Assembly: GCA_004431415.1 (NCBI GenBank)
Contig: QPMI01000570.1
Location: forward strand, 1 to 32,466
Reading direction: 5' to 3'
Origin: Cyanophora paradoxa CCMP329
Lineage: Eukaryota; Plantae; Glaucophyta
DNA length: 32,466 bases
The position numbers and the translations under genes are program-made. Each line of letters starts with the position of its first letter. Position 1 is the stretch's first letter. The notes under the pieces are model-generated. The model saw only the letters and a list, made by a program, of their open reading frames with translations. It searched no databases and was not told the DNA's origin. Shown here piece after piece: positions 1-31,406 of the stretch.

Positions 1-1758
1 ATGCAGGGCGATCCCCATCCCAGTATGCTGCAAGATCTACCAGCAACGTTGACAGCCATATTGGATTGTATATGCATCCCTCCTCGGCAATGAGACTCCC
101 ATCCTGTTGCCACTGCGCAATTTCATATCAGGACGGGCGACGATAGATATAAACAGGGAGAAGAGGACATCACATGGTAGCGGACACGGAGGTCGATATC
201 AGAAAGTGGTACGTAGTTGAGGGCGTTACGTGCAAGGATAGAAAGACTTGATAGGTCAAATGATTTAGGCACAATGCCAATCGACAAGGCATGGTCCCTC
301 AGGGCAGGACATAGTTGCACCTGCACCATTTCAATGGGCAAGGGATGATTATGTGATTAATATAAGGACATGGCACGGGTAGTGAGGCGCACCTCAGAGT
401 CGAGACCCATGTCGCGGCAGAAAGATGACCAGTTAATGCAGTAATCTCGAGGTATTGGGAGGATGTTGCAGGGACCGCAGCCGACTGTAATACGGTCACT
501 AACACATACACAGATGGATATATCATGTGCGTTGCCCCCCAGAACATCCGGAACAAATGAGCATAAACGGCATGTATGGGGCAGAAACGGAAGAGAGGGT
601 GCACCAGGCTTGGCAGACGAAGTACAAACTGCGTTAACGTGGTCTCTGTGTGGCTTATCAGTGCACTAATCTTTCGGCAGGGCGCATGTATAAACTGAGG
701 GGGTCAGGGAGAGGGCCGTAAGCACCGTCTCCGGAGGCGCACAGGTCTCAGCTTTGAACTCAAGTCCGGAGCAGGTAAGGGTGTGCCGGAGACCCCTATA
801 GAAGAAAGTACAAGACCGTCAAAGAGGCACTTGTACAGTGAGAGTTGGAGGCGCGTTTGCTCCTTCTGTAACTCCCGCGGTACAGTACGCAGTGCTCGCG
901 TTTTGTGATCGACGATGATTACACGTCCTCTTTCGCGGTCCTGCGTAGGGGGTGGGCGCCGGCAACGGAAAGCCAAAATAAGCGAACCAGCCGGATCTCG
1001 TCAATTATACCAATTAGGAGGAAACCACCACATAACCAAACACTGGCATTTCCCTCGTCTGCGATTGCATAGAATGAGTGTACGGACAACCTTGAAATGT
1101 CACCAGGGTCGAATGACTACGTACAATGCCCGCCGTGGCAAGCTCTTGCAGGCAAGCGATGAAGTTCAATAGTCGCACAGCATGTAGGTCTTCAGCAGTC
1201 TGCGTACGGTTGAAACCGTTAATGTAACATTGTAAGTATGGATACAGCAGAGTCGTGCTGAATGGTTTTCACACCTCAACGTCAATATCGACGAACGTGT
1301 GCAGCTCTGCCTCCAGGGTTTCGTGTCTTCGAGAGCCTTCCTTCATTGCCGCTGTTTGAATGGGTCGCTCTCCGGTGGTCAGAGCCAGTTCTACTGCCCT
1401 TTCACACCACAGCTGCGAAAAACACATAAAATCATCTACAGAGGTGATTACCACTTGCAAATAAAGACTGAATGCACAAGACCAGTGAGACGCCTAGCGC
1501 ACCTGAGAGCACAGCTGTGTGACAGAGAAGTAGACCTTCTTGAATCTCTTCCGGGGAGGATCGGTAGGAAAGAGTCCTCAATGTCGTTATTTGCGAATTC
1601 GTGGTAGTACTGCATGAACTTCCGAAAGCATGCGTGTTTATTACACGGCGATTCGCAGCGGCCGCAGTCAGTGCTGCTTCTATCTCCGCCATCTCTTCAT
1701 CTCCCACGATCTCCACTTCGATGTGAGACATTACACGGACACTGCATGCAGAAGACAT
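1..1758 (-). CDS. EXO5: Exonuclease V (EXO5/DEM1 family, Fe-S ssDNA 5' exonuclease), multi-exon, 3' end truncated by window edge
   Basis: Family motifs in order across exons: IEVEIVGDEEMAEIEAAL; SVDDFMCFSQLWCE...TAAMKEGSRRHETLEAELH; TAEDLHAVRLLN; REMPVFG..LIGIIDEIR; IIVDHKTR...QLSLYKCLFD; WQQDGSLIAEE...WLSTLLVDLAAYWDGDRPA at the left edge. Confidence 0.88.
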
Positions 1759-2041
1759 GATTACTGGATTTAGGGTGTGGGCAGGGACATAAGCAGGAGT
1801 TTGGCACGTGACCTAGAACTCATAGGCGGACGTGAGAAACTAGGTGGTCCCCAAGATAGCGCATCACGGATAAGACTAGTGGCACACAGGTGAAAGCAAC
1901 AACGTATAAGCGATAGCAGCGGCGGAGGCAGCGGATGATGAAAGATGGAGCAGAATCACGAAGACCAACCTGACGGAGATCAGGACGTCAGCGATTTGTG
2001 TCTATCTTGAGATCTAGAGCAGGGCTCAGCCTGAACGCTAA

Positions 2042-2790
2042 CCGCAGCGGTGAGGGCCAGAGGAACAGACGAAGAATTCCGGATGAGTTCTACGCAGCCG
2101 CCGGCAAGAACGGAGCGCGGTAACAGGTGAGCAGTCGGCCAAAGAAGCGGCCGGCGGGGGGCAGAGCGTGTTAAGAGGTAAGCAGTAAATGTAGGCTAAA
2201 GCAGCGGGCGGCGAGGATGGTACGTCTTAATCGGTGAGGGCTAGTCGAAAATAGAGGCCGGCGGAGGGGAGCGTGTTTAGCAGGCCAAAGCGAAGGCAAT
2301 CGGCGGCGGCGGAGCGGCCGGCAGGAGAGGAGCACGCTAAGCATTCCGAGACTGCGGCCGGCGAGGGCGGAGCGTGTTAACCGGTAGAGGCGACCTAAAC
2401 GTCGAAGCAGCAGCCGGCGAGGCCGGAGCTTGTTAACCGGTAAGAGCTAGCTATACGCCGAAGCAGCAGCCGGCGAGGTCGGAGCTTGATAACCGGCAAG
2501 GGCTAGCTGTACGCCGAATCAGCAGCCGGTGAGGACGGAGCGGGATAAGCGGCAAAGGCTAGGGCAAAACGGCCGGCTGGAACGGAGCGCCGGCTGGAAC
2601 GGAGGCCAGTGCAGCGGCTGGCTGGAACGGAGCGCGGCCGGCTAGAACGGAGTGCGGCCGGCGGAGCGAGCAAGTTTAGGCCAGTGCAGCGGCCGGCTGG
2701 AACGGAGCGCGGCCGGCGGAGCGCAGGCCAAATCAGTGGCCGGGGCCGGCGGCCGGAGTGGCTTAAGCAGGCCGAATCAAACAAGAGCAG
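2042..2790. repeat. Degenerate tandem repeat, ~56-bp unit
   Basis: Unit GAAGCAGCAGCCGGCGAGG.CGGAGC.TG.TAACCGG recurs at about 2404, 2460 and 2516, with more diverged copies on both sides. Confidence 0.8.
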
Positions 2791-3164
2791 GATGCGAGGT
2801 CACCTGCCTATGTCATCGGCGCACCTGCGAACTTGCGTCGAGCCGATCGAAAGGATGGTGGAGACTTGAAAGGGGTACAGGCTCATTGCTAAACGACCGT
2901 GGGCCACGGTCGTTCGGCAGACATGGGTACCGAATAATCAACGCGGCAGGCGGGCTAGCCTAGTAGTACGATTAAATGACAAAGAGTTAAACTGAGCGTT
3001 CAAGCACAGCATACCGCAATCACGGTCATGCACGAATGCGCGCGTTCAAGCATGGTATTCGCAAACTCCCGGAGCCAAACAAGAGCAGGCTGCGCGCGTT
3101 CATGATCAAGCATGGTAGTCGCAAGTTCCCGCGCCGGAGCTCCGACGTCGACGTGCCTGACACT

Positions 3165-3430
3165 AAGGGCGCTGGTCAGAGAGATGGAGACCTAAGGGAG
3201 GGGTGGGGTGCTTGAGGGTGGCGGCGACTGAGGGTGGCGGGGAGCTCGAGGGCGGCGAGGTGGAACAATGAGAATACGAGACGGGGTGAAAAAAAGGGAC
3301 TTTCGCAGCACAGCGAACAGTAGTAGGGGGGCATATAGAGAACGGACGGATAGACTACTGAGGGGGGGGGAGGGGGGGCGATCTTAAAATTACGGGCGGC
3401 TGGTCAGAGAAATGGAGACCTAAGGCAGAT
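3165..3430. repeat. Left part of ~215-230-bp tandem repeat array, interrupted by the LTR element
   Basis: Unit start GGTCAGAGA.ATGGAGACCTAAGG at about 3174 and 3402. The second unit resumes at 8378 (GGGGTGGTGCCCTAAAGGGTGGCGGCGACTGAGGG). Confidence 0.8.
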
Positions 3431-3867
3431 TGTTGAGCTAGAAATCCCCCATTCCGGTGCCCTAGGGGTGGCACGGGATTCTAGACAACAGGTTTATAGA
3501 GTGACTCTGACCTGCAGTGAGTGCAAGACCGGCCCCAGCGTGATGCAGGTTCAGCAGTATGACAGTACTCGTAGATTTGATCCGACAGAGTTTCACTACT
3601 CTAGTCTCTCTACTAGGCCGATCTCCGGGAATGACAAAATCCCCTAAACACGCACGCGCCGGGCTCCTAAAGCCCTCACGCTGTCCGTCCGAAGCTCTCA
3701 TGATCAGATCATATGATCCGATCAGACGGCTCAGACATATGAAAAGCGAGCCACTGGATTCGAACCCGAGTCTCTAAATACGCCGAAGCGAACTGCCGGA
3801 ATTGAACCCGGGTCTCTACGAACGGCAAATTCTAAGGCTGCAGCCGCCTAAGATTTCGCCCGCGACA
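3431..3867 (-). repeat. 3' LTR (437 bp)
   Basis: TGTTGAGCTAG...CCCGCGACA; direct repeat of 7941-8377. Confidence 0.95.
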
Positions 3868-4368
3868 TTCGTCGCAGCAGAGAAAAGCCGTCCTCGGCGC
3901 CTGCTACCCGTTCGTCGCAGCAAAATGCGAGGCCTAGCGTATGTAAACGTAAATCAGGTCCTGAAACCTCAGTACCACGAAGAGGTCAGGCCAGAAAATA
4001 TGGATACGAAATCCGACACTGAAGGCTGCAAAAGCAAAGCCCTCTGAGAACCTCGGAAATGCTGCGTGCGAAATTCAGAAGACGTATATAATGAAAAGTG
4101 GCCGAGGCGTTCTAACGCCCTGACGGCCCTAGCAGCACGAAGGCTGCACTAACTCTAGCAGCACGAAGGCTGCACTACCTATAGCCAAATCAGAGAAAAT
4201 CAGAAACCAGCAGAATATAACTATAGCTAAAGCTGCACATGTAGAGCTCAGAAAATATTTTCGAAGCTCACTGAGTCATGTACAAGCTAAACGCAACGAT
4301 ATGAAATCGCGATCACGATCAATATTCTAAAATAAGAATATCGAGATATCGATCGGAAATCGAACAGC

Positions 4369-4848
4369 TCAAGCTGCGTACTGCTGCTTGGCTGCGAGCT
4401 CGAGCTCGAATCGCTGCAGATGTTGCCTCACTCGCCGCGCGCTGCGGCTGATATGTACACGATTTTGTACAAATGCTTCGAGCTCCAGCTGCGGCTGCCA
4501 TGAAGAACGCCGACAGCTGCATACATACGCGTTGCAAATACGAGAAACGCAAGTATATATGATGAGAGGTCGCTGCAAGGTGCGGCCATGCTTGAACCAG
4601 CATCGCCAGCACGACTCTCTCGACGAGGGCAGTCTTGATTTGGGAATGACAGCGCCCTCGTGGACTTGCCGTGGACGTTGGCCTTGCAGACGCCGCTGCT
4701 CCTTCAACGTCGGCGAAGTCTGGCCCCTCCGGCCTGCGTCTGAATCTGTAGATGGCGAGAAAACGAGGAAGCCCTGTACATCCAAACGCGGGCGCCGCCG
4801 CGATGAGTACTTCCAAAATTTCCGCTCGTGATCTCTGAACCGCCTCAC
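4369..4848 (-). CDS. Possible second ORF of the LTR element, Cys-rich, unknown function
   Basis: 159-aa ORF on the same strand as gag, with CWRCWFKH...CVSRICNAYVCSC. No recognised domain and the start is uncertain. Confidence 0.25.
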   Translation of the reverse strand: MRRFRDHERKFWKYSSRRRPRLDVQGFLVFSPSTDSDAGRRGQTSPTLKEQRRLQGQRPRQVHEGAVIPKSRLPSSRESCWRCWFKHGRTLQRPLIIYTCVSRICNAYVCSCRRSSWQPQLELEAFVQNRVHISRSARRVRQHLQRFELELAAKQQYAA

Positions 4849-5863
4849 AAGATCCTCCGCCGTTCGACCCGAGAATTAAATTGCGGCCGGACGCACAGCT
4901 AAGGTGACGGTTGCTGTGTGCCCGCCGGCGGTAGGTGCGATTGCACGTCGAGTCCAAAGACCCAGAAGGTCCGCCGGGGATGCTCTATCCTCCGCCGGGT
5001 CAGAGGCACGAGGGAGACGGTGTCCAGTCTCCATAGCCAACAGATGGTTAAGGGCGTCCCCCGCTCCACCTGAGGCGAGACGGTGTCCAGTCTCAACCAA
5101 GTCCCCTCCTTGATTCCGAGAACGACAAAGGCCGGTTCCATCCGACTATGGGAGGTGCGCTTGCCTTGTCGTCCTGTTTCTTGTCAGTCAAGCCCGCTCC
5201 TCCGAGACGGACTGCATCTCGACGACGCCGCGTCGAGACACGCTTGACTTGAGTGTAGTAACCCGCGGCGACGATAACGCTGAGCTCGCGTCCGTCTGAT
5301 GCAGGGCCGATTCCGGTCTCGTCGGTTGGGTGTCAACCGGTCCAATGCTGTCCTGAGCGCCCTCCTGTCACGAGCAGGTCCGCGCCTCGAGCGAGACTTC
5401 GGGCATCCCACCCTCCACGGTTGTCCTCCCGCTCACGACTGTCCACAGCGCCCTCCTGGGTTCTTCCCATCCTGGCCAGGGCCTGGGCAGGTCCGCGCCT
5501 CGGTCGTGAACGCCGGTTCACCGGATCGGAGCGACGCCTTCTTCAAAATTTACGAATTCACGAATTCGAAGTCCGACCAGACCAATTGCAAGCTCCTGGT
5601 CATGATCATGATCGAGTCAAGGTCAATCCAGACCTTCAATGTCAGAAGAAAGGCCGTCGCTGTCGCAGGTGCGCGCAGTCCAGCACCGCGAAGCTGCCAC
5701 CGCTCCACCCACAACTTGAGAAGTGCAGCTGAAAATTACAAGTATACGCCACCACGTCGCAGGGACCACACCCCTCTTCGCGACGATATAAATCCTCATT
5801 CCTCCTCCGCTGGTCTTTTAATTCGCTTCACAGGCGGAGACCGAACCGCCATGGCGTATACTT

Positions 5864-7033
5864 TCACTTCGCGCCCGCCAGACTGCCGGAGCTCCGATAT
5901 TTCTCGAGCTCCTGCTGACAGGCTGAATATTGCATTTGCAGCTGGTTCAACTCCCGTTGAAGTCGCTTGCTGCAGACGGCAGTGTTGTGCGAGCCGCTCT
6001 TGCATTCATCGCACCAACGAGGTTGTCCACCGCCCTGACTTGAATTTAACTTCAGCTTCTTGCTGTCGGGCTCGTCGACGTCGTCCTCCTCGAGGCGATG
6101 ACGATCAGGGAAGGCGGAAAGTTGAGCAACAGGAGCTCTTGCCGCTGCAGTAGAAAATGGATTGCCAGTGCTTGCTTGCTGCAATCGAATCTCGAGCGCG
6201 TTGCGCGACCGAACTCGACCGAAGAATTCGCGACTCCACTCCGCCAGATTATTTCTGGAGCCCTCCGGAATTTTACTCGTGAGCTTGATCATTGACGGTG
6301 AAGTGATCGAATCCGACGACATGATTTCCGCGATCAACATCTCGTCGGAGAACGAATCTTGAAGCTGCAGTAGACGACGAAGAATATCAACATTATTTAT
6401 AAAGGCTTGCGCATCCAGCTCAGATGGATTTTCCAGCGCAGAGAAGCGACGTCCCGCCGTCTTGATAGTGTTCTTCAGAAGCTCGAATTTGTTGCCAGGC
6501 ACCAAGCCGAGCAGGTGCTCACGAATTTGTGCCCACGACGTCATGTCCAAGTCGCCGTTGCCCGACTTCGTAGTCATGACACCCAGCACAGCCGTCGAGA
6601 AGGATCCATGCACCGGGTCACTTGTCGAGCGCTGCAGCGAAGATAGTGCAAGCTCTGCCAACGTCTTGTCGGGTTCTGTGTATGTCGGAGGCCGGATACA
6701 AATTGTTAAACGTTCCAGCGACTCGACCCACGACAGTACACCCGTATTAGTCAAAGGAGGAATTTTCTCTTTGAATTCTCGCAGCTCGTGGTGACGTGCT
6801 TGCATGTCCAGGTTGCCAGTTAACGCGTCCAGTGCGTTCTTCAACGTGTTCTCGACTGCAGCAGCGGCTACCGCCGCCGGAGCCGCAACAGGCGCCGGAG
6901 CTGGTACCGGTGGTGCAACTGGAGCCGGAGGCGGAGCTGGCGCAGGTGCAGGAGCAGGCACTTGCGCTCCATGGCCAGCCGCCCCGTGGCCGCCGCGTTG
7001 GCCGCCGCCCCTGCCCCGTGTACTCGGAGCCAT
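5864..7033 (-). CDS. gag: Gag-like protein with CCHC zinc knuckle
   Basis: 389-aa uninterrupted ORF between the LTRs: Pro/Ala-rich N-terminus, capsid-like VLSWVESLE...TSWAQIREHLL region, and C-x2-C-x4-H-x4-C (CDECKSGSHNTAVC). Confidence 0.85.
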   Translation of the reverse strand: MAPSTRGRGGGQRGGHGAAGHGAQVPAPAPAPAPPPAPVAPPVPAPAPVAAPAAVAAAAVENTLKNALDALTGNLDMQARHHELREFKEKIPPLTNTGVLSWVESLERLTICIRPPTYTEPDKTLAELALSSLQRSTSDPVHGSFSTAVLGVMTTKSGNGDLDMTSWAQIREHLLGLVPGNKFELLKNTIKTAGRRFSALENPSELDAQAFINNVDILRRLLQLQDSFSDEMLIAEIMSSDSITSPSMIKLTSKIPEGSRNNLAEWSREFFGRVRSRNALEIRLQQASTGNPFSTAAARAPVAQLSAFPDRHRLEEDDVDEPDSKKLKLNSSQGGGQPRWCDECKSGSHNTAVCSKRLQRELNQLQMQYSACQQELEKYRSSGSLAGAK

Positions 7034-7925
7034 GGAGAACTTGAGCTAGACACGTCCGCCCGCCGCTCGATACCGCGCGTCGTAGTACTAGTGTAGGCCC
7101 GCGCGCCCCTCGACTCCGAATATTTTAATTTATTCCGACGTCGACTCGTGTGCCCGTTCAGTCGCAGACTAGAGTGCGAGCCTCCGAGGCTTGAGAGTTG
7201 CGAGTTCACTCGCACAAGAAGTGCGCTCAAGCCTCGCAACACGCCCAGCGCGCCGCGACTCCCGATCGCGCGCACGCCGATGCGCCGCCCGCGGCCGGCG
7301 CGCACGCGCTCGCAGGCTCGAGCTCCCGGCCGCAGGTCCGCCGGCGCGCAGCCGGGATGCCGGCGCGCGCCCTGGTTCCGGATCCGGCGCTCCGGCCCGC
7401 GGCGCTCCGGATCCGCGGATCCGGATCCGATGATCTCGCGCGAGGCCCTAGGTGCAGCGCTGCGCCCGGGGCCGCGCCGACGAGCCGCCGATCTACAGCG
7501 CGGTCTGCAGTGCAGACGCTGCGACGAGCGAGCGGCGATCAGCCCTGCGACGCGCGCGAGGCGCCTAGATCTAGAGCCCCGGAGCTAGCCCGGCTAGCCG
7601 CGACGTCGACGTCGTCGTTAGTGGCGCCCGGCGGCCGGCATGCGCGCGCACGCGCCGCGCGCGCTAGCGACCGTCGGACGCCGGGTCCGGAGCCCAGGAC
7701 GGATACGCATCTTTAAGAGCCTCGCGATGGCGCTGGCGGCCGGGCAGCGTCCGCTCATGATCACCCGCGATAGGTTGCGCCGAGCGGGAAGGGCCGGGGT
7801 TGAACGAATGCGCGAAACGGTTCTGGTCAGCGCACAGCGACTTCTGAAGGCACAGCGACTATGCGCATGAAATGAACGCGAGGCGAAGCTCGCTCGGCTA
7901 GCTCGCAGAGCCAGCGTTCGCGTTT

Positions 7926-7937
7926 GAGCAGCCCCCA
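7926..7937 (-). promoter_or_regulatory. Primer-binding site, tRNA-Pro-like
   Basis: Minus strand TGGGGGCTGCTC begins 3 nt after the 5' LTR. It is complementary to a CCA-ended tRNA and resembles the tRNA-Pro PBS TGGGGGCTCGTC. Confidence 0.65.
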
Positions 7938-7940
7938 AGA

Positions 7941-8377
7941 TGTTGAGCTAGAAATCCCCCATTCCGGTGCCCTAGGGGTGGCACGGGATTCTAGACAACA
8001 GGTTTATAGAGTGACTCTGACCTGCAGTGAGTGCAAGACCGGCCCCAGCGTGATGCAGGTTCAGCAGTATGACAGTACTCGTAGATTTGATCCGACAGAG
8101 TTTCACTACTCTAGTCTCTCTACTAGGCCGATCTCCGGGAATGACAAAATCCCCTAAACACGCACGCGCCGGGCTCCTAAAGCCCTCACGCTGTCCGTCC
8201 GAAGCTCTCATGATCAGATCATATGATCCGATCAGACGGCTCAGACATATGAAAAGCGAGCCACTGGATTCGAACCCGAGTCTCTAAATACGCCGAAGCG
8301 AACTGCCGGAATTGAACCCGGGTCTCTACGAACGGCAAATTCTAAGGCTGCAGCCGCCTAAGATTTCGCCCGCGACA
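7941..8377 (-). repeat. 5' LTR (437 bp)
   Basis: Direct repeat of 3431-3867. Confidence 0.95.
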
Positions 8378-9500
8378 AGATGCAGGGGTGGTGCCCTAAA
8401 GGGTGGCGGCGACTGAGGGCGGCGGAGAGCACGAGGCTGGCGGGGCGGAGCAACGAGGACCTGAGACGGGGTGACCAGGGGGACTTTCATACCACAGAGG
8501 GTGATGATATGACACAGGGCGGCGGGTCAGAGCGATGGAGACCTTTTTTTTGCAAGAGCCCAACCGGGCAATGTTCGTATTAAGGACAACAACAGCCGCC
8601 CCGTCGCTTGCATCGACTGGGGGGGGCGCCTAGGCTAGCTCTGAGGCTCTGCGGAATAGAGGGAAGACGTCCTGCTATCTTATCCTAGCTGTGAGCTATC
8701 GATCTGCGGCTTGAGGAGGGCCTGATGCGCTGGTGTCCTTGGTCCTGTGGAAAAGGAGGGAAGGGGGAAGGCGAGGCGCACGGGGTGCGGGAGGTCGGCA
8801 GGGGGCGAGGCGTAGGGAGGGGGAGAAGGGCAGGGAGTGGGGTACACGGAGCGCTGGAGGGTGGCGGGAGTGAGGCGTTCGAATCGGGAAGCTGAGGGGC
8901 GCGCGGGCGGGAAGGGTGACGGGCCGGGAGCGGGGCAAGGCGCTGGAGCCGGAGGGCGGGGGCGGGATGCTGGAGCAGGAGGGTGGGGGCAGGGCGCTGG
9001 ACCGGAGGGCGGGGGTGGGGCGTTGGAGACGGAGGGCGGGGGCGGGGCGCTGGAGCTGGAGGACAGGGGCTGGGCGCTGGAGGCGGGGGGCGGGGGCGGG
9101 GCGCTGGAGCTGGAGGAGCGATGGAGACCTATATAGCTAAGGGAGGGGTGGAGCGCTTGAGGGTGGCGTGCGGCGACTGAGGGTGGTGGGGAGCTCGAGG
9201 GCGGCAGGGCGGAGACAGGGTGACAGAGGGGACTTTCACAACACAACGAACAATAGCAGGGGAGCATATAGAGTACGGTTGGCTAGACTACCGAGGGGGT
9301 GGCGATCTTAAAATTACGGGTGGTGGGTCAGAGCGATGGAGACCTAAGGGAGGGGTGGTGCCCAAAAGGGTGGCGGCGACTGAGGGCAGCGGAGAGCACG
9401 ACAGCGGCGGGACGGAGCAAGCTAAGGGGAGCCTGAGACGGGGTGGGAAGGGGGACTCTCACAGCACAACGAACAGTAGCAGGGGAGCAAATAGAGTATG
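8378..9500. repeat. Right part of the ~215-230-bp repeat array plus G-rich low-complexity tract (about 8740-9120)
   Basis: GAGCGATGGAGACC unit starts at about 8530, 9116 and 9331. Shares GGCGATCTTAAAATTACGGG with 3377-3397. Internal GGCGCTGGAG repeats. Confidence 0.8.
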
Positions 9501-9509
9501 ATACGTAGA

Positions 9510-10225
9510 TTACAAGACACAGAGACACTGCTGCAGATGAGGGAGTGCAATGCGAACTAGTTCATGTACAGGTAGTCTAGCATCGAGCCGTACAATCGGA
9601 ATTCGACGCTGGTCTTCCAGCTCATTAAGCCACTCAGCATACAATTTTGACAAGCCTGGAATAGTCCGGATGGTCTCTTGTGAATCTCCCCGACTGCATG
9701 CACGACGCTGACAGAGCTCACTTGACGCATCCAGATATACTATCATAATCGGATCGGGAAACGCAAGACAAGCATACGTTTCTTGAAGCAAGTCGCGCTC
9801 GTGAAGGGTGAGATTGCCACGAGCGTGCCAGTAGGATGAGAAGATAGTATTTGAAGAATAATGACATCGCTCGACCAGGCCGATGATCGGAGGACTGCCA
9901 GTGCTAACGCTAGCGCTGTTGGCAATCGATAATTGGCGAAGGTGATCAGCATGAGACAGTAACGCTCGAAGCTGCATGCCAAGTACAGCGCCTGGTCTAG
10001 GGCCACCAGGCGCAAAAATACCGTCCAACCACGGCTGCCAAATATGCAGAGGCTCCGGGAATACACGAAACTGGGAGTGGCAGTTTGCTTCGACGGCTGC
10101 AGAAACTAGCTCTGCAATGAGCGTGCTTTTACCAGCTCCCGGCGGCGCTTCGAACGATACATATGACGCGCTGTTGCAGGCACCGGTCGGCGTACTGTGA
10201 GCGGGAAATCTACTAACGACTGCAT
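9510..10225 (-). CDS. Deoxynucleoside kinase (dNK/dCK/dGK family), apparently intronless
   Basis: One open frame from about 10230 to 9510 reads YVSFEAPPGAGKSTLI (P-loop), FPEPLHIWQPWL, LVERCHYSSNTIF (ERS motif), PDPIMIVYLDASSELCQRRACSRGDSQE (lid). The nearest ATG (10225) is one frame off. Confidence 0.88.
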
Positions 10226-10277
10226 GGACTTAGGGTGAGAAGCAGACGAAAAAAGTGAACAGGGGTACAGGCAAAAC

Positions 10278-10989
10278 ATGGACACGTGCACATAGAAGAT
10301 AGTCGCAAGCACAGCACTAGTACGCAAGCAGCGAACGCGCGTTGCAGTGCGGAACTGAATCTGAGCAGTACCGAAATAACGTCGCTGGCAAATTTCGCGG
10401 AGTGCAGCCGGTGTCACGCAGCGCACTCTGACAGGTCGGCACGTCCTATGTCTGCCGGTCGCACGCTTAGTCAGTTGCAGGTCATCGACTTCAAAGTCCG
10501 GTACCTGAATTCATAAAGGAGCAAGGGGTGCCACCCAACAAACCGGATGTGCGCTTCCCTTACCAGCTACTTCGCGCCACTGCCTCAGCGGTTGGCTGCA
10601 GCTGCTCATTATAACACGATGATTCACGAGGGAACGAGGTCCAGCTGTTCATGACCATGTCGCCAACTACTACGTATTGGGAGCAGCTACTCGGCCTGCA
10701 TGCAAACGGAATCGCGGAGAAATTGCCAGATACGGATACGGCTATAACCACATTCGACGGGAGTGGTGTCGCGACCTCTTTCCAGCAAGATCAGTACCAA
10801 CTGATCACTGCAGCTGTACCAGTCGCAGCACACGAGGACAGTGAGGATGATATGCCAGCACTGGAAATCGGCATGCCACACTTTTACATAGGGATCAACG
10901 CCATTTCCGCCGCGACCGATCCTCCAGCAGTATACTCTCATGAGCATTCGTTGATCTGGCTAGTAGGGGCGGTGCGGCGTGAAGAATAA
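10278..10989 (+). CDS. Hypothetical protein divergent from dNK
   Basis: ATG at 10278; ORF pieces 10286-10516 and 10651-10989; AATAAA overlaps the stop. No recognised domain. Confidence 0.3.
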
Positions 10990-11047
10990 AAATTCGATCG
11001 ATTAAATGGACATATCGCTAAACGAGGGCATCATAGTCATATCTATT

Positions 11048-11680
11048 CTACGGTATCAATGCAGAGTAATGGTGGTTCTGTATAGAAAGTAGAGAACCGT
11101 CGCAGTGAAAGATCCCGTGGTAGAGTAGACACAAGGGACGGTGATAACGGATGAGAGGAGGGACGTGAAAAGTTCCATCAATCCCTGTGTGTATATACGG
11201 GAAACGTCGGGAGGCACTCCTATCTTCAAAAAAAATCATGATAGGTCTACACAAGTAGGCCGAACAGAAGGCGACTTCCAGATTTGTAGCTGCACGGGCG
11301 TTATAATGACATGAGTAGTTTCTGGTTAGTAGGCAGCACACACCGTCTGTACCGGGCTCTCGCATGCGGTTGCAGTATGCGGTAATGATATTCGCACCTT
11401 GATTGAGACCTTGCGCGCCGTTTGGAGCGACTGGGGCGTCGGGAATTGCAGCGGAGTATAATAGGGGTAGAAAGGATGGAGAGGACTAGTTGACATCATC
11501 AGGTCAACAACACCTGCCCGTAGTGTATCCGCAAAGAAACATTTCTCTGATTTCCGCTGTAAGACAGGAAGGTCCCTTCAGCAGATAACCCGTCGATGAT
11601 GGATAGGAACATGCAGCGCCTGCACCAGAATTGCTGCGAATTTCGACGTATTGGAATGGAGCTCTAGATATAAATGAAAG
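11048..11680 (-). CDS. OTU-like cysteine protease/deubiquitinase domain, downstream of and possibly fused to RepHel
   Basis: SGAG(R)CMFLSIIDGL (Cys at about 11613-11615, needs a 1-nt frame correction), LRAGVVDLM, YCNRMREPGTDG/ATNLEVAFCSAYLCRPIMIF, LCLLYH, NHHYSAL. This is the OTU motif order. Confidence 0.72.
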
Positions 11681-18400: not shown

Positions 18401-18954
18401 AGTACACACTGACAACTCGATTCATGATGTCGTAGCGGTGAAGCATTCCCAGAAGACACACATTGGCAGCGAATGACATGCAATTTATCTGACCGCCTTG
18501 ACTCTGTGCAGCAGCTACACAGTCGCCGGATGCAGTATAGCTTGAGAAAAAATAACCTGGCAGCATCCTTTAATGCTTGGTTTGAAATCTCGTTCCAGAA
18601 CTGAATCGGTTCATAGCTGATGCAAGCATATGCATGAGAAGTAGACGTGCGTACACGGAAACGCAAACTTACTCGGACAATAAGGTGGCGAAATCCGTGT
18701 GAAGTTCCAAGAGACGTTCAGTCTTGTTGCGCCTGCTACGACTTGCACTCTTCGCGTGTTCCGAGGGTCTGAGAGGATTCGACGCATGGCGAGCTGCAGG
18801 AAAAATAAAACAGAGATAAACGGACATGAAAAGAAAATTCAAATGTCACCCCGCACGTACCCGAATCATAATCACGCAAGAATTGCCTGTCAGAGTCAGG
18901 GAGCGCATTTCTCAGGCGACCACGGTACGAATTCTCTGAAAAAGCGCCCGTCAT
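12421..18954 (-). CDS. Helitron Rep/Helicase transposase (HUH-Y2 endonuclease plus PIF1-family SF1B helicase), intron-rich
   Basis: N-terminal LSDLTYPELLMCQRV and VRLDRCFEVLECL (HLE2/DUF6570-like). Rep: RGTAAYW...GFPHIYMTLSSDDLHWPDL, HUH motif YEVQSRGSLHAHLVIW (about 16585-16636), RHKHSHTC, CRFGFP, ANMDIQ...AAYILGYMTKDE. Helicase: GPGGTG/KS, WTGVASFNIGGSTV, IIIDEISF, FGDFFQLPPV, LDEVVRQAGD, LAWAVTIHKCQGLTL, AYVACSRV. Start ATG 18954 is tentative. Confidence 0.95.
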
Positions 18955-19037
18955 GCCAGTTCACTAAGGGTTGCAAGTTCTAATAAACACTCACTTGTTT
19001 GTCTGCTAGGCTGGGTCGATCGGTGAGCTATAGACCG

Positions 19038-21200
19038 ATGGGCCTCCCAACAAGGACGATCAGCGAGTACGGTGCCACACAGACCACATGGAAATTTGTC
19101 GTCCAGTGTAATATCGTGGGCACCAGCCAAGTGGTATCGCCATTCATTCTCGGTCCGAAATGCAGCCCTGCATGAGGCGGCACCGACACAACGGTACGCA
19201 AACTATAAAAAAGATGCACGCAAATTAGCGAGAGGCAAACGGTCCGAAACAAAAATACCACTTGCATGTTGAGCTGGGGTTGCATGCACGAATCGATGGA
19301 GAAGAGGCGGAGTTGATAAAGAAGACTGCGACAGATGGCACGGTCTAGGTGCAATTTTAGGAAAACGTTGCACCTAACATGGCAGCGACGTTACACCGGA
19401 ATATAATACCCATATTATTCAGCACGCACAATTTCGAGAAAACGTGAGGGCGTGAATGATGAAGAACCCGGTAGAGGGTTATAGGCAAATTGCACATCGG
19501 GCGGTGCAGCCCCGCCATGAATATATTGACTCGTTCAACCTGCGTCGACAAATGTAAGAACATTCCACGTCTCCACGCAACAGCACATATTCGGCAGCAG
19601 CGCGCAGAGGGCCTCCGAGATCTTGACACGATACGCACGGGCCAAATTCGAGGACGCGCCCCCGGCGCGAGAAGCCCTTGCGTCTAAAGCCTGCAACGCG
19701 TACGCTCTCGGCGCCCTGCCTCGGCAGGAAGGGACGTACAGCGGCGCACGCGACGGGAGCACCAGGGCGACGTGCGGCCGTCAAGGACACACCGCCGGCC
19801 GAAAGTCCACGATGGTCCACGTGTACCAGGGTAGCTGAGCACGCTAGACGCCAACTGGGGATGCAGTTCCTAAAGAAGATGCTAGGCGGCAAGACTAACC
19901 GTACTAATTCAACGACCACCCACAGGGGTATCGCATAAAAAACACAGTAGTTGGAAGCAGCACCAGCTATATTAAGATGTCTAGCGGGAAGACGATCGCC
20001 ATATCCAAGGACCTTGTCGCAAACGCGACGCAATACGCACAGAGAGCACACGATAGCGTATTACGGGATGTTAGACAGGATGCCGTTGCCAATCTCGGAG
20101 ACTTCCCCTCGGAATGCAGGGCCGACCTCGTAGAGCTGGAATACACAGCATTGCAGTTAACCGGCAAGCGGCTGATCACGAATCGACAGTTCAATCGACT
20201 CGTATGGGCGGCGGAGGTGTACGCGCAGTTCGCCGAAGTTGACCGGTGTCTGCAAGCAGAAGCTATGGAGATTAAGCGTGACAACGAGCCTAGTCAGTTC
20301 TGCGGCGTATTAAGCGTCTCCCCTTTTCAGCCGGGACACGATGGCGAGTGCTAGCTTTGAAACGGAAGTGGAATTGGAAACTGAAGGCGACTGACGAGAA
20401 ACACGTGGAAGCAGCGGCAGCTCAAGATCGGGACATCGAAGATCTGGAAATATACGCAACAGTATCAGAGGCAATCGCTGCAGTGGAGACTAGGATCGCA
20501 GATATTGAACGCGGAGGGCAACGAGCAGCGGGGACTGTAATAAGGCTGGTGGGTTGGTAAGCATGAATTATCTGTACATGAACACAATAACGTATGCGTG
20601 GATTTGAACTGAAACATGCAATCGGATGCAGTGAGGAGTGTTTGGAGGTCCGGAGAAAGAAGAAGAGCGCGTGGGGAAAATGCAGCAAGCATGCAATTAC
20701 ACGGGACCAAACCTCCAAGATTGACAGTACAAATTGTAGGCAGTAACTACCAGTTGTTCAGCAGGAATTAATATACATCATTCTAAGATGATATCCAACT
20801 CTAACTGGTGAACTTGCAAGGCAGATTCCAGAGCCTGGCAGATGCAAGGCAGTGGCATGGCAGCAGACGAACATGAGAGATGCCACAGTGCAGGTTCCGC
20901 AAGCCAGAAGCAGGTATATATACGGAAGGAACGAAGGGCGGGGGCCAACTGGATGCATATGCGGGTTGGATAGAGGCAGGGAGAATTAGGGAAGCTGAAG
21001 GAAAATGCGATGTAAGATGTAAGAAACGCGTGTGTAAGAAACACTCATCGACAAAATTGGGCGAACCTGGAGCGATCAGTCGTCAAGTACTATTTCGTCG
21101 ACGACCTCGAAAGGGTGGTAGCCGGCTCGTGACCGAGACATCTCTTCGACGAGGACGGTAATACGAAGCGCGAGCCGGGCGGATCGATCGAGGATGGCAG
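19038..21200 (+). CDS. Unknown multi-exon gene divergent from RepHel
   Basis: ATG at 19038; protein-like ORF pieces 19977-20354 and 20348-20560. A GTAAG...CAG intron (about 20557-20631) joins to GCEECLEVRRKKKSAWGKCSKH (C-x2-C...C-x2-H). Gene limits are uncertain. Confidence 0.4.
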
Positions 21201-21208
21201 CGAGAGTC

Positions 21209-23529
21209 TCAGAGGCGCCATGGCTGCCGCGTGCACCGCCTTGACCGAATCCTCATCGGCCCACTGGATGATGTGAGAGGCACGGTTGCAGATGCTGGTG
21301 ACCGACCGGAGCCCTGCTGTATGTCGGCCACAAGGCCGCTGCGCTGAGACCGAGCAGCGAGAAATGCCTGGAAGTGGCCGGCCACCGCGCGCGTCACAGT
21401 GACAACTCCAGCGACCGATGGCGTGTCGTAGAAGACCTCGGCGAGACTGTTGGACGCACCGAACGCTGCAGCAGCTGCAGAAGCTGCATACAGTGGAATA
21501 CGGCGGGAGGACAAGAGGAGGCCACCGACAAGCCCGAGAGCGGCAAGCCGAGGGCAGTTGCGGGCGACTTGTGCTATAGAGCTGACCAGAATGCCGTGCA
21601 CTTCAGGCGCGGGGCCGCTATAGGAATCACGAGGCGCTCGAGGGTGTCCGATGAGAGGCGCATAGCAAAGTCCGATACGAGACGCGTATTGTACTTGTGA
21701 TCGAAGATGCGATGAGCAGAAAGGTCGAGGGATACAAGATATTTGAGATTGTGGATGAGGTCGGCGACGTGGATGAGTTTCTCGGGCAGCACGGGGCTGC
21801 GCAGAACCTCGAGGGACCACGGTAGGTAGTTAACATCTATGCACCCGCCGGGTACTGACGGGATCGAGTTCTCAAAGTGAGTAATGTGATTCTGCAGATG
21901 GTCGTCCATCCACTCAAAATCAAACAGACTGCGGAGATTGACACGCATGGTTGACGGGGCCGCCACTGCCGGCGACGGCACCACGTGCGTGCGCGAAGCC
22001 CATGACTCGTAATCACCAAAGATGTCGAAGCTGACCATCGGAGAGTCGCACTCAAATGTGATCTCGACGGGCGCTCGCAACAACGGAGGTATGAAGTACA
22101 GCCCCTCGTGTGCATGACCCACGGGAAGGGACCCTCGGACGATAACCGACCGAGCATCGAGCCGCGACTCGACGAAGTGACAGCTGTTGGTTGCGCACTG
22201 GTACGCAATGGCGCCCGTAGATATCTCGAGCCGGTCAAGGAAGAACGGACCAAGGGACCAGCCTCCGAATCTGCGACGAGTGCATGTGATTAAAATGCAG
22301 GATCACTTGTAAAAGTAGAACAGGAGTAAATTTCGCTGTTGCTTCAAAGATACCAGCGATGAGACGGCGAACCTATCAACATAGCAGGAGCGGGGGGCAG
22401 TGGTGCCAGGCAGCGGCAAAGGCTTGAAATGCAGAGCGTCCAGGCCTTCGAGCTCATTGGATGCCAGATCATCAAAGACGAGCACCTTGGCCGACGTGTT
22501 CTTGGCGACGACGTACCATTTGCCGTGCACGGGGCGCGCGTTCCCCGGGTGGGCGGCGCTAGTGGACAGGGCGAGTGACCACTGATCTGCCGGGATGGCT
22601 GCTGGCCCATCGAAATCGGAAGGCCGAAAAGATTCGTTGACGATAACGTCCAAGAACTTCGCGATGTACGGATGCCGACGGGGCGGGACGTCGAAGATGC
22701 GCGATACGACGCGGAGTAGGCTGCTCTTGCCAGAGAGGAGGTGGTGGACCCAGCGACCGAGGAAGGCAAGAATAGGCGCGGTGTGCTGTTCACTAGAAAG
22801 GGGCTCCGCAGGGTTGACGTAGCCGACGTCGCGGAGCGCCGCGTCGAGGTCGAGAACGACGCCGCGCTTCCCGTGATAAGGGACCACGGACGACGACGAC
22901 ATGAAAATACTGCGGGCCCGCCGATGCGTGTGTGCGAACGCCACAGCCGAACGGGGGTCTGATCCGAGGTGACGCATGATTTCGGCCATCACCAGGTCTG
23001 GGAGCCCGTCCAGAGGAGAGAACCTGGAACGGATAGTGGTCGTGTGATAATCAGTCCGTACGCGCTCAGCGGCCGGAGGTGGTCGGGTGCGGGGCGCTGG
23101 AGGCATAGGGTGGGGTAGAAGCAAAGAGTGCAGTCTGGAAGCGTGGGGCCTGGGCTTGAGGGTGACGGGGAGTTGAAGGGGGGCGGCCGGGACGAGGAGC
23201 TGGAGGGCAGCAAGGGGAAGGGGGTCTGGGTGCGGCAGAGCAGGTTGATGGAAGACTCGGCCCGGGGCGGGGCGAGCAAAGACGACGGGGGCGAACAGCG
23301 GAGCACAGGGAGGGTTTGAAAGGCCCATTTGGAGTTTCGGTGAGGGCTTTAAACTAATATTCGAAGTACAGTCCAACAGTGCGCACGTGCACGGCTCCGC
23401 GGCCGCCGGAGCGACATCCGGATCCGCCGGGAAGACTCTCGCTGGATCTTCAGAAGGAGGACACGCCGTGCCAGACGTAGAAGCAGATACAGGGGCATCA
23501 GCTGAAGAGAACTGCTGAGCGATGAGCAC
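21209..23529 (-). CDS. F-box-like protein, multi-exon or frameshifted
   Basis: 408-aa ORF containing LDGLPDLVMAEIMRHL...AFAHTHRRARSI (F-box-like), continued by ORFs 21574-22122 and 21209-21820 with weak LRR-like segments (LKYLVSLDLS, RNCPRLAALGL). Confidence 0.55.
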
Positions 23530-24831
23530 AGCCGAATTTCGGACAACCGTCTAGCTGCATGCGCCATGCTAGCTGGATGCACGTGCGCACCCAATCGGCA
23601 AATCCGGAGGTGATGCAGCTGCTCCTGCAGATGGGGCATCTGTGGCTCACCTAAACGCAGCTGCAGATCCATGGGGGACAGAATAAAGGGGCGGACCGGG
23701 CAAGCTGTTCGTAGTGCGATTCGCAGGTCGACCACGCTTTGAGGGAGGCCTGCGAGCGAGATTGTGCAGCGTGTCGAGACGGACTGAGCGGTAGGGCGCA
23801 TGGCGGGGCGCGCAGCGTGCAGCGCACCCTACGGGGACGCGAACATCGGCGATGGATTTGCTTCAACGTCCGTCGACTCCGTAGACTTCGGTTTGCAATG
23901 GCGGGCCTGCGGCAACGAGAGTAGACAAAGTACATGAGTGCGTGCGGAACAAGACGAACAGGCCCGATTCAGGCGCGCGGGCACCGAGTCTTCACCATGA
24001 CCGCGCGTCCGATGGCTACAGGTGAGAACGGCCGGGCGACGGCAGATTTTTGTAATATGCCGATCAGCCGCAGAGGAGGCCTGATTAGCACGGGGGGGTA
24101 TCATTAAGGCGGCAAAACTGGCAATAGAAACCGGCTGCGATCCGGCGGCGAAACAGCCGTAGGGAGAGCAGACCCACCTGTTAAATTGGACGGGTACGTG
24201 CGGCCAGGTAGACATGAGCCGCCGATGATCTGCAGATTCGTGCACAGTCGCTGACCTGGCTGTAAGCGCGACGGCGAAGCGCGAGCTCGGCGCCTGCAAT
24301 AAAACTACATGGAAGGATGCGGTGCTACATCTGGTGACCCCCAGGGTGCGGGCTGTCACACGCACGACCGGCGAAAGCGCGCGCCGCTGTCAGAGGAAAA
24401 TTAATTCGGTGCACAAACAGAGTACACGATTGACACGGAAGATCACAAGTTCCCTTCGGAAGTCCCAGTGATGCGGGAGAGCACTTCGCGCGCAGCGCCG
24501 ACTTCCGAACTTGGCACAACGGACAATACGGTGACTGTGTACGTTCATATATGGCTTCCGAATAACAAACATTCACTTATAATAATGCTCAGGATCGAAG
24601 AAGCACGAGAAAGCATCGATAATTCAAATCCATCGCCAAGCCACGTGACGACCTCGGACGACAATTCTGGTGGGTATATACCCTATAAATCAGAAGTCAT
24701 GTGGATATGGTGCACTAAACCAAATTGTCATGTCAGCCCCGCCCCGAATTCTGCAGCGGCGGCTACTTATATAATAAAATATATTTGACATGACAGAAAG
24801 CACCGCAGCCCCCTAATCAACAGTCCTATAG

Positions 24832-25589
24832 CTAGTAGTCTTCAGACGAATCATATCCACATACATGGTCATCGTAGCAGTCCATTTCATTGCAGCAGAG
24901 ACGATTGCAGATTTCGCCGCGGTCCTTGCCGTGTGTAAGGTCCTCTCCTGGCGCTGCTGGTGGTGCATGTCTCTCATTCCTGGCACGAGGATCGCCGTAT
25001 CCCCGATAATGAATGTTCCGCTTCAGAATCCGCCGACAGCGTATAACTGTGTGATTGGGGCAGAAGGTTGTGACAAAGAAGTAATCAAGCGCGCCCATGC
25101 GGGCATGAGCCCATGTTCGATCGGTACAGACATCGCATTTTATCATCTCGCTGCTATGTTCCTCACAGTAGAGGCTGCACAACAAGGGCGTCAGCTCCCG
25201 TCAGATATGTTGGTTTTGTGAGTAGGGTTGCAATTGAACACTTAAACGTCAGATATACACCACGCGAACCTGCCACAATCTTCCGATGAGCAACGGTATA
25301 CCGTATGCTGACGACCGCAAGTACTGGCCATGGAGGGTTCGTGCAAGTCGTCATTGCAGAAAAGAATAGGACAGCCAGTGACGGATGAACACTGAGCAAG
25401 CCGGCACGTTCGTGCGGGTTCGAGCGGGCATGGGCCGTGCATACCGTCGATGGCAGGGCACGGTCCGTACGCATGTGCACACGCGACGGCAATCTCATCC
25501 CCGGAACACGCTGCAGTCGAAGTAGGAGGTGGAACGGCTTCAGCTGACGGCACCATTACTATATGCTGGATCGAAATAACGTACCCCAA
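24832..25589 (-). CDS. Cys/His-rich putative zinc-binding (PHD-like) protein
   Basis: Consecutive ORFs 25242-25589 and 24832-25185 are dense in Cys/His: CSLYCEEH..EMIKCDVCTDRTWAH...FCPNH. Confidence 0.45.
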
Positions 25590-27212
25590 ACGGGTACCCT
25601 AGTCGCTTCATGGCTCAGATCCATACATGACCCAGGCTCCATGCATCTACTTAAGCTTGCCTGCGAGCATGCCGGGCTTGCCGCCCGCTCTTCCTCCGCC
25701 TAGCCCCCGCCCTTGCCCTTTGCCCCCCCTGCCCCGGCCCCCGCCCCCTCCTCCCCCACCGCCGCCGCATCCTCATCGTCCGCGGTCCTTGCCGCGCGGA
25801 TATGAGAATAGCGTACATACACATAGCGGGATGCAGACCTGGATTAATCAGTCGTCGAGTACTACCACATCCAATTTCAAAAGGGCTATATAGTCCCAGG
25901 GGGGCTTGACATATACTTGCACATCGCGCCTTAAAAGCTTGTATAGATAATCACATGATGTGCCATGAGGAGAGTGTACAACTGAAGAGAGGGTACAAAT
26001 TGCATCACGGGAATGGCACAAGTCACGCAGGAGGCAATAAACAAGTACGTGTGTACTGAACTAGCGACCGATAGTTCAAGCAGTTGATATATCTGAAGCG
26101 TAAAGGATGTCAAGTGCGTGGATATGCGAATCACGTAGATACACATAGCCGGGCGCCATTAGAACTGTAGAACCATTAGAAATTTGAAAAACATGCGCAA
26201 CGATCAACACGTACATGATGGGACTCGCACTGAGAGATAGAACTCGACACAGGCGGCATCCAGCAGGTACAGTTTACACCTGCAGCGATACACCAGGTCA
26301 TTAGCATTTAGACCGCATCAGAGCGGACCCGGAAACACGAGCATGCGCACGGAGCAAGAGCACCAGGCGCGCAGAGCGCTCACACGACGACTGAACGGTA
26401 GTAGGACCAGGGCGCAGGCGTCTGGCGGGCAACGATGGCAATGCAAAGAAGTCAGCAGCAGGCCAGCGCATATAACAAGCAGGACAACAGTGGCAGGGCA
26501 GCGCGTACAGCGGTCCGGTCTAGATCCGACAGGCAGCGATGGCCTGAAGTACAAAAGCAAAGGAGGACTTGCGGCCTGAATGCGCCGCACACCGAGAGAG
26601 GCTGGACGCGACCAGGGTGCGGTTGTGAGCGAAGCGGAGCATATAACGAGTCGGGCGCCAAAGACAGGGCGGCACGTACAACGGAACGACGGGAGCTCCA
26701 GCTAGGGCGACACCAGCACGGCCGCCGGGCCAATTCCGAAAAGTGGAACGAGGACGCTAACAACAGCTAAGATGCAGCGGCCGCAATGCCAGGACGTGCG
26801 GCCAGAAGGGTATACGCAACACCACATAACCGGGTACACCAACGCCAAGTAGTCGATCGCGAGCGATCGCGAACGTCCGACGTCGACGTCGACTGCCGAT
26901 CGAGACAAGTCAACTAGGACCCCAAGCAAAGACCCGATCTCGGAGACTTCAAAAATCATGTACCCCCAGAATCTCATAACAATAGTACATAGGTCGCAGA
27001 GCTTTTAACAATGGGCCGTACAATTGCAGACCTTTACAACTCGAAAGTCCGACAGGTACTCCTTAAACGTCATTGGATGGAAGCAGGTACTACTCGATTG
27101 ACGGGTCACGAGTCGGCAGTATAGCCTCTGGTCTCTTCTTCCTTCGGTCAGAATTGAGACCGAGGCTGATACCGTACCCCACAAAGATCTGTTCCCCCGT
27201 GTCTTTGAACTG

Positions 27213-27750
27213 TATATGTGCGCGGCGCGGCGGCGCCGGCCGCGCGGGGCGCCGGCGCGGCGCCCCGGCGCCGGCCGCGGGATCAATATTAAAATTATTC
27301 AATGATTATCGATCCCGCGCGCGCCGGCCCCCGGGCCGGTGCCCCGCCGCGGCCGGCGCCCTACCAGTAGCTATAGGCCTATATATATATACCTCCCCCC
27401 CCCCTCTCCATCCGATGATCCCTCCCCCATCCCTCCCTATATATATATAGCTAGGCCGGCGCCTAGGCCTAGGCCTCCCGGAGTCCAGCCTGGCGATGGC
27501 AGCCGGCAGCCTCCGATGCAGCCTCATCATGCAGGCCTCGCGATCGCGATCGGGCGCCATGCCAGCCGGACCGCCGGCGCCGCCGCGCGCAGCACCCCGG
27601 CCCCGCGGCCGGATGCATATGGCCATATGCATATGCATGGGCCCCCGCGGCCGCGGCCGGCCGCGCGCGGCCCGGCCCGCGCGAGGCCTAGCTATATATA
27701 GGGGGCCGGGGCGGCGCCGGCTGCGGTCCGGATCCGTGCCGCGAGCCTTC
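27213..27750. repeat. Palindrome-rich GC/AT-block segment, possible small insertion
   Basis: Nested short palindromes (ATGCATATGGCCATATGCAT, GCCTAGGCCTAGGC, TCGCGATCGCGA) and TA runs, flanked by AACTG direct repeats (27208-27212, 27751-27755). Confidence 0.45.
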
Positions 27751-27898
27751 AACTGCCAACGTTAGGGGCTGGAGTCGCCTCAAGGCTCTCGATCGCACAT
27801 GTACACTATAGCTAGGCACTGCGAGGCTCGCAATCGCGATCGCGATTCAAAAGATTCAGAAGCGGTCATCTAGCTATAGATCTGTATCGTTACATCAC

Positions 27899-27936
27899 GA
27901 TGCCGAGCGCTCACGGCATCCGGGAAGGGAGACTTT
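27899..27936 (+). other. Candidate Helitron terminal hairpin plus T-run
   Basis: GATGCCG/CGGCATC 7-bp stem around a near-palindromic core, 13 nt spacer, then TTT at the element/host transition. Confidence 0.5.
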
Positions 27937-28269
27937 ACATGCACTGTACAGGGGGGAACGCCCTCAGTTGAACGGTCGCGCGTTCGCGCGGAGGCGTCGT
28001 CACGGCCCTCCTCGGCGGCGGCGGCGCCAGCGATCTGAGGTGGGGCGTTCCGGTTGGGTTCAGTTTCAGTCGGGCGGGCGGAGTGGCTTGGAGGGGTGCA
28101 GCAGGGAGCGGGGGGCGGGGCCTCGCCTTCGGCGGACGCAGAGAGGCCCTGGACGCCACGGGTCCGAAAGGAAAGGAGAAAGGAGGCCCGGCGTCAGGCG
28201 CGAGCAGCGGGGCGGGCGGGCGGCGAGGCGGGGCGGGGCGGCGCGGGGCGAGAGGGGCGGCGGGGGGTA

Positions 28270-28642: not shown

Positions 28643-28675
<33 letters not shown>

Positions 28676-31357: not shown

Positions 31358-31406
31358 GCAAGACCCAGCCTAGCTAGCTGAGCTCGGCGAGCGCACCCAC
31401 CGCACC

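Follow-up and report, generated by a model that had tools for sequence, protein, structure and literature searches.

The stretch of DNA considered here, 32,466 nucleotides from the glaucophyte Cyanophora paradoxa CCMP329 (contig QPMI01000570.1, positions 1 to 32,466 of the forward strand; hereafter "the window"), carries a gene for RepHel, the transposase of Helitron rolling-circle transposons, within an island of about 28 kb whose comparatively low guanine-plus-cytosine (GC) content, roughly 50%, contrasts with the 72–75% of the adjoining host DNA. The island also holds genes resembling those for a deoxynucleoside kinase (dNK) and for exonuclease V (Exo5). A preliminary description of the locus had proposed a giant Helitron with a stable, virus-like repertoire of accessory genes. 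We read it as a single-copy, non-host, intron-free island around a very divergent and probably intact RepHel gene, which is possibly one large Helitron-type rolling-circle element; as a whole, we hold this reading at a probability of about 0.35.

The RepHel gene

Pfam profiles were compared at E ≤ 0.01 with 352 open reading frames (ORFs) of at least 50 amino acids: 150 of the 152 stop-to-stop ORFs of at least 90 amino acids in the whole window, and all those of 50–89 amino acids left of 28.2 kb (92 on the minus strand and 110 on the plus strand). A selection of 71 ORFs was rescanned at E ≤ 2. Together with motifs and matches to PDB structures, these scans place RepHel on the minus strand at 12424–17563, where an HUH rolling-circle Rep domain is followed by a PIF1-like helicase over some 1700 codons. 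The Pfam family Helitron_like_N matches 16664–17020 (E 1.4e-12; 48.6 bits against a cut-off of 28.9). The helicase is recognized in pieces at 12424–13915 (PIF1, UvrD_C_2, Herpes_Helicase), each under its Pfam cut-off, and its C-terminus matches structures in the PDB, namely PIF1 helicases (E 2.6e-12) and the Helraiser transposase (E 5.1e-5).

The translations contain what we take, from the known motifs of Helitron proteins, to be an HUH-like motif (within 15994–16647), a two-tyrosine motif (within 15692–16219), and Walker B with helicase motifs III to VI (between 13953 and 12424); Walker A is divided between two frames by a frameshift at about 14.1 kb. The peptides RGSLHAHLVIW and AAYILGYMTK are presumably Rep motifs of RepHel. 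The gene named in the preliminary description is therefore present in the form expected of a Helitron, encoding a RepHel protein with an HUH Rep domain and, C-terminal to it, a PIF1-like helicase of superfamily 1B (SF1B). Upstream of Rep, Cys-rich frames and a weak C2H2 zinc finger occupy 17475–19202 on the minus strand (zf-C2H2, E 9e-4, under the Pfam cut-off), and these may be the RepHel N-terminus.

In a collection of 1.84 billion representative proteins, nothing matches the 218-residue Rep ORF at E ≤ 0.001, and none of 508 candidates from a word-based search against longer proteins was significant; as this ORF carries little conserved sequence, the absent matches indicate divergence only. 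Judged by its domains and motifs, RepHel is a very divergent but genuine Helitron transposase gene.

Several of the frames look broken, and this is probably the work of assembly errors. Compared with the window, Illumina contigs from short-read runs carry net extra bases (16 over 9098–13724, 15 over 13909–20000, and 10 over 1–2715) with 0–1 substitutions, so that the window is short by about one base per 300; a crude path that switches frames to stay open needs 18, 18, and 16 switches over the same three intervals. An extra G after 13921, seen in 4/4 runs, joins the helicase ORFs 13863–14192 and 13729–13953 into one frame, and is the sole indel listed inside RepHel, the positions of the other 45 not being given. 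Because the frame breaks match bases deleted in the assembly, RepHel, after correction for assembly indels, is probably a single intact ORF of some 1700 codons that has no introns. ORF lengths over 1–20000 of the window understate how intact the genes are, and the same caution would cover the frame splits in the Exo5-like gene and the absent start of the dNK-like gene.

The dNK-like and Exo5-like genes

A stop-free ORF of 239 codons at 9513–10229 on the minus strand resembles deoxynucleoside kinases. It matches PF01712 with E 1.7e-12 (48 bits against a curated cut-off of 27; profile positions 8–180 of 203) and has the P-loop PPGAGKST, with no ATG ahead of it; the score and the P-loop together place it in the family, as the preliminary description had supposed. 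Matches to PDB structures are weak (E 0.36). The sole database relative of this ORF is a paralog from the same species, P0002, 57% identical over 76 amino acids, and the reading frame has stayed open for 239 codons despite 43% divergence from that single relative. A metagenome scan with a dNK alignment returned 199 pattern matches, none of them confirmed.

The Exo5-like gene (exonuclease V, a PD-(D/E)XK nuclease) lies on the same strand at 300–1700, its outer limits being estimated. Three adjoining pieces of PF09810 point to it, again in agreement with the preliminary description: 1272–1493 (E 2.5e-10, profile positions 20–68), 1017–1268 (E 0.025, positions 67–103), and 707–1000 (E 2.4e-6, positions 162–208), of which two exceed the Pfam cut-off of 25, at 40.8 and 27.7 bits. 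Since the three matches hit successive profile positions there is no sign of introns, and the gene is apparently intronless with frames split by probable assembly indels. The C-terminal third, at about 300–700, where the Fe-S cysteines of the family would be expected, has no Pfam match even at E ≤ 2; the structure of human Exonuclease V (7LW7) is matched weakly, at E 0.013.

Between dNK and the end of the helicase, a chain of open frames of no known family runs from 10232 to 12420 on the minus strand and is putatively coding. A codon-usage model built from about 13 island segments was tried on such unknown ORFs and set aside as too weak, its leave-one-out in-frame scores being −0.38 to 0.20 bits per codon.

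Non-host composition of the island

The preliminary description correctly noted a lower-GC region against GC-rich host DNA: GC is 0.47–0.53 over 9.5–19 kb and 0.74–0.755 over 28–30.5 kb. At third codon positions (GC3) the island ORFs have 0.45–0.54, against 0.81–0.97 in host genes (0.81 in a host F-box ORF at 31407–32240; 0.97 in WDR26 exons, of which a small sample was measured). The observed-to-expected ratio of CpG is 0.88–1.11 across the island; CpG is not depleted, and the low GC is therefore not a product of the decay of methylated CpG. Dinucleotide-signature distances are 37–126 among island segments and 128–238 between island and host, with large noise from segments of just 2–3 kb. Every identified island gene is on the minus strand, and RepHel, dNK, and Exo5 all show no signs of introns, whereas the host WDR26 gene is intron-rich.

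We conclude that the island genes are foreign-looking and not ordinary host genes; they are near full length, intronless, on the RepHel strand, and of non-host composition, and so are not ordinary syntenic genes of the host. It is very improbable that an ordinary host origin explains the dNK-like and Exo5-like genes, with a Helitron as a chance neighbor. Both families do occur in eukaryotic cells, and the two genes are single-copy and present in all 20 sequencing runs that contain the stretch, which speaks for such an origin; their GC3 near 0.5, their intronless state next to an intron-rich host gene, and the lack of any dNK or Exo5 gene model for them in a protein collection that contains the EukProt proteome of this species speak against it, as does the dNK paralog of GC-rich type elsewhere in the genome. 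Single-copy, syntenic host genes were part of what the preliminary description had said would count against a giant Helitron, and the outcome is divided: single-copy the genes are, at ≥95% identity in the left 20 kb, yet with a composition that is not the host's.

To judge from its translation, the paralog is a GC-rich-type dNK gene at another place in the same genome. The gene model P0002 (tig00000492_g1397) is chimeric; it starts dNK-like, and its first 16 residues are identical to the island dNK. Beyond these it diverges, with replacements toward Gly/Ala/Pro/Glu-type residues. Three histories would account for such a paralog: the kinase was captured from the host, the host domesticated it, or the paralog is an older copy of the same cargo.

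Copy number, termini, and mobility

Copy number was read from the short-read contigs of four runs at ≥95% identity. Over 1–2715, 9098–13724, and 13909–20000 the depth is even, at 266, 230, and 260 in run X1 and 157, 165, and 173 in run X17; single diverged copies of the interior of a nested long terminal repeat (LTR) element, described below, have depths of 180–198 in X17, about that of the island. As depth is equal throughout and matches these single copies, the left 20 kb is single-copy at this identity in 4/4 runs. The contigs are unbroken over 9.1–13.7 kb and again over 13.9 to about 22.7 kb, and hence there is no repeated terminus close to RepHel. This counts in favor of one mobile unit, as do the lack of a canonical 3′ end on the RepHel strand in 1–28 kb and the strand, intronless state, and composition common to the identified genes.

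A number of observations weigh against the island being one large Helitron. It is single-copy, in that no second copy at ≥95% identity was found for 1–20000 in the four runs, and the usual traces of Helitron transposition, whether additional copies that share their ends or sites without the element, are lacking for the left 20 kb. No Helitron termini were identified in the window, and the left end lies outside it: the island continues for at least 1.9–3.0 kb beyond the window's left end, and the 3′ end may lie there. An empty site beside WDR26, which the preliminary description had hoped to see in other strains, did not appear; 20/20 runs that contain the stretch hold both island and flank, over 23.0–32.5 kb and with 16/20 at 0.81–0.82 of words, and these runs may all represent one strain.

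The right end is equally problematic. The preliminary description had placed a terminus at a hairpin at 27900–27921, and a hairpin with a 7-bp stem does exist there; it sits 79–102 nucleotides downstream of the annotated WDR26 stop codon (28000–28002), on the 3′ side of the host gene. Given the strand of RepHel this is the wrong end: in a minus-strand Helitron the position would correspond to the 5′ end, at which the established anatomy of these elements leads one to expect no hairpin. The boundary with host DNA is also not sharp, GC beginning to rise at about 27.2 kb, and composition is uneven inside the island, with GC of 0.54–0.63 over 19–24.5 kb. Tandem repeats of 2.6 kb lie between dNK and Exo5. 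The shared strand counts for little, as only three genes are firmly identified and would agree by chance in one case of four. The proposal of a stable accessory repertoire on one giant Helitron holds, then, in so far as the genes are near full length, intronless, and not of host type, and is unsupported as regards one mobile unit.

On the RepHel strand, no hairpin followed by CTRR and T was found in 1–28 kb, where HLE2-type ends, asymmetric inverted ones at a TT target, were not searched for. A hairpin followed by CTGA and T is present on the plus strand at 27144–27169, the only one in 1–28 kb against 2.2 expected per shuffle; though no more than chance would give, it could mark where a plus-oriented, non-autonomous Helitron terminates. 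This hairpin sits where GC starts to rise. A TTTACA at about 27.93 kb was considered as the complement of a TGTAA poly(A) signal, which is known from green algae, and this reading was dropped.

Distant relatives and the extent of the element

A metagenome scan with the helicase end recovered 65 loci, 23 of which match at least three RepHel ORFs of the window at 26–59% identity. Two further results from these loci weigh against a large gene-carrying element. At E ≤ 1e-4, no match to dNK, Exo5, or the remaining island ORFs occurs in any of the 65, the 23 loci with Rep and helicase having been checked within 10 kb. Two families of RepHel relatives are multi-copy, with units of 6.5–9.7 kb at 98–99.5% identity. 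The relatives are distant, and show only that the cargo is absent as a trait of the wider lineage. The spacing from Rep to helicase is about 4.6 kb here and about 3.1 kb in the relatives. A single metagenome assembly (contigs L001–L024 and L059–L061, WLWD01...) contains numerous copies from two or more Helitron families, which suggests that Helitrons multiplied recently in some eukaryote present in the sample.

The size of the fetched relatives, which lack the extra genes, favors a compact Helitron of ordinary size, at about 11.7–19.3 kb, lying amid unrelated foreign or decayed DNA, with dNK, Exo5, the F-box-like ORFs, and the Cys-rich ORFs not co-mobile with it. The uneven GC, the satellites, and the young LTR element suggest repeated insertion in the region, the F-box-like segment is compositionally intermediate, and Helitron capture of full-length genes is called exceptionally rare in the passages on gene capture of one review (PMC6431247). 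We nonetheless regard this explanation as somewhat unlikely: no canonical 3′ end follows the helicase on the RepHel strand, the short-read contigs do not break near RepHel on either side, and the neighboring genes have the strand, the intron-free state, and the GC3 of RepHel.

According to the same passages, fungal Helitrons reach 14 kb and those of maize 39 kb (PMC6431247). The resemblance to these gene-carrying Helitrons lies in large size through accumulated captured genes; they carry mostly gene fragments, have the composition of the host, and exist in many copies, whereas the island has near-full-length genes of non-host composition in a single copy. With autonomous Helitrons (HLE1 and HLE2) it shares a single long protein, with HUH Rep followed by PIF1-like helicase, and extra genes on the same strand; it differs in that no TC/CTRR ends, hairpin, or AT target were found, in being single-copy, and in the strong divergence of RepHel. 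The HELIANO survey lists 20 domains as stably included in such elements; its main text mentions no kinase or exonuclease, and in one of its supplements neither dNK nor Exo5 nor Cyanophora is listed (PMC11417382). A literature search found no paper that pairs a Helitron with a deoxynucleoside kinase, a nucleoside kinase, or Exo5, and for Helitrons in Cyanophora nothing on point, judged by titles. Passages on the C. paradoxa genome give 29.4% repeats and do not mention Helitrons (PMC6704402).

A viral origin and the remaining accessory genes

Low GC, intronless genes, a nucleoside kinase, a nuclease, and F-box-like genes also fit large DNA viruses, and the island might be a piece of an endogenous virus-like element, either a giant-virus insertion or the relic of a large DNA virus, in which RepHel is a viral gene, a passenger, or a later arrival. 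RepHel is not known as a core gene of giant viruses. The continuation of the island past the left end of the window also speaks for this reading. Among the 352 scanned ORFs there is no capsid protein, polymerase, packaging ATPase, integrase, or other viral hallmark; scans of IMG/VR with dNK and a helicase ORF, which detect close relatives only, gave none; dNK has its sole relative, a paralog, within the alga itself; and the identified genes are all on one strand. A viral fragment is, on this evidence, quite improbable. Giant endogenous viral elements, along with heavy CpG methylation of repeats, are reported for C. paradoxa in passages of a recent study (PMC12344493), and the island resembles them in being a foreign cluster of probably silenced genes in the same species; it differs in that no viral hallmark gene or viral relative was found.

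Two accessory functions named in the preliminary description fared less well than the kinase and the nuclease. The OTU protease has no counterpart that we could find: no OTU domain was matched in the 352 ORFs at E ≤ 0.01 or in the 71 selected ORFs at E ≤ 2, and no OTU catalytic-Cys motif was found. For the F-box protein the evidence is mixed. Two F-box-like ORFs of 415 and 242 codons lie at 21577–23550 on the minus strand, and the longer (22306–23550) contains the motif LPDLVMAEIMRHL and has an Atlas lead of 0.90–0.91; neither has a Pfam F-box match, including in the scan at E ≤ 2. The only Pfam-significant F-box belongs to the host ORF at 31374–32237, outside the island, to which ORF 22306–23550 shows no similarity. 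With GC3 of 0.67–0.68, the F-box-like ORFs are intermediate between island and host, as is the dinucleotide signature of their segment. Two Cys-rich ORFs at 24835–25598, also on the minus strand, were recognized in translation; they belong to no known family and have no Pfam match.

Nested LTR element, repeats, and host flank

An LTR element of 4947 nucleotides is nested in the island at 3431–8377. Its features are those of an LTR retrotransposon and bear out the preliminary description: the LTRs (3431–3867 and 7941–8377) are each 437 nucleotides long, 100% identical, and bounded by TG...CA; the target duplication AGAT occurs at 3427–3430 and 8378–8381; and in 4/4 runs a contig joint from 3426 to 8378, skipping 4951 bases, represents the empty site. 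The insertion is recent or strain-specific, since the site is empty in all four runs, and other copies of the interior occur in these runs at 95–99% identity. No gag or pol domain was found by Pfam in ORFs of at least 50 amino acids, and the element is therefore probably non-autonomous.

Tandem repeats with units of 56 and of 17–20 nucleotides occupy 2197–2720, between Exo5 and the LTR element. On the other side of the element, G-rich repeats detected by repeat scan and by their multi-copy depth fill 8378–9500, with a 27-nucleotide minisatellite at 8932–9116 and units of about 223 nucleotides that recur at 3144–3428.

The host gene of the right flank is WDR26-like, has many introns, and spans 28000–31240 on the minus strand, with Pfam pieces for WD40 and CTLH. 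Its exons agree letter for letter with the EukProt models P0003 and P0004 (tig00021176_g19187 and tig00021178_g19189), both accessions being named Cyanophora paradoxa. The same exons are thus encoded by two models on two contigs, tig00021176 and tig00021178; the WDR26 locus may have been assembled twice, possibly in one version that carries an insertion and one that lacks it. The gene region includes a run of 30 G at 28645–28674, and C-rich arrays are close by at 29087–29252. Between island and host gene, a GC-rich palindromic spacer at 27200–27900 contains five of the nine TATAGCTA motifs of the window, which lie at 2448, 4222, 9132, 24827, 27368, 27446, 27689, 27807, and 27871; nine occurrences compare with 0.44 expected, and 0/100 shuffles reach nine.

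A possible history and its significance

If the island is one rolling-circle element, its flanking genes would be part of the same mobile unit as RepHel, and RepHel would act as its counterparts in other Helitrons do, by nicking the DNA, unwinding it, and transferring one strand. Downstream of RepHel, the element would have captured the genes for the kinase and the exonuclease by reading past its own 3′ end; gene capture on that side through bypass of the terminator is presented as a textbook route in the passages cited above (PMC6431247). In such an element the kinase could supply deoxynucleoside triphosphates, and the exonuclease, acting on 5′ ends of single-stranded DNA, could process the displaced strand. 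A bolder form of this reading, which we think unlikely, is that of a Helitron of at least 23 kb from a deep, undescribed glaucophyte lineage, with its own working dNK and exonuclease V, the kinase having come from the host paralog or having been its source. If true, this would be a rolling-circle transposon with a virus-like module for nucleotide supply and the processing of single-stranded DNA.

The locus has a practical lesson, as it shows that unpolished long-read sequence can give intact genes a broken look. Even without mobility, it is a clear case of a GC-rich algal genome in which foreign genes, free of introns, have kept their reading frames open. Should the whole island move together, it would be the first case of a Helitron with full-length genes for nucleotide metabolism and a single-stranded-DNA nuclease; the distinction between rolling-circle transposons on one side and small DNA viruses on the other would then blur, and this in the glaucophytes, whose mobile elements have hardly been described.

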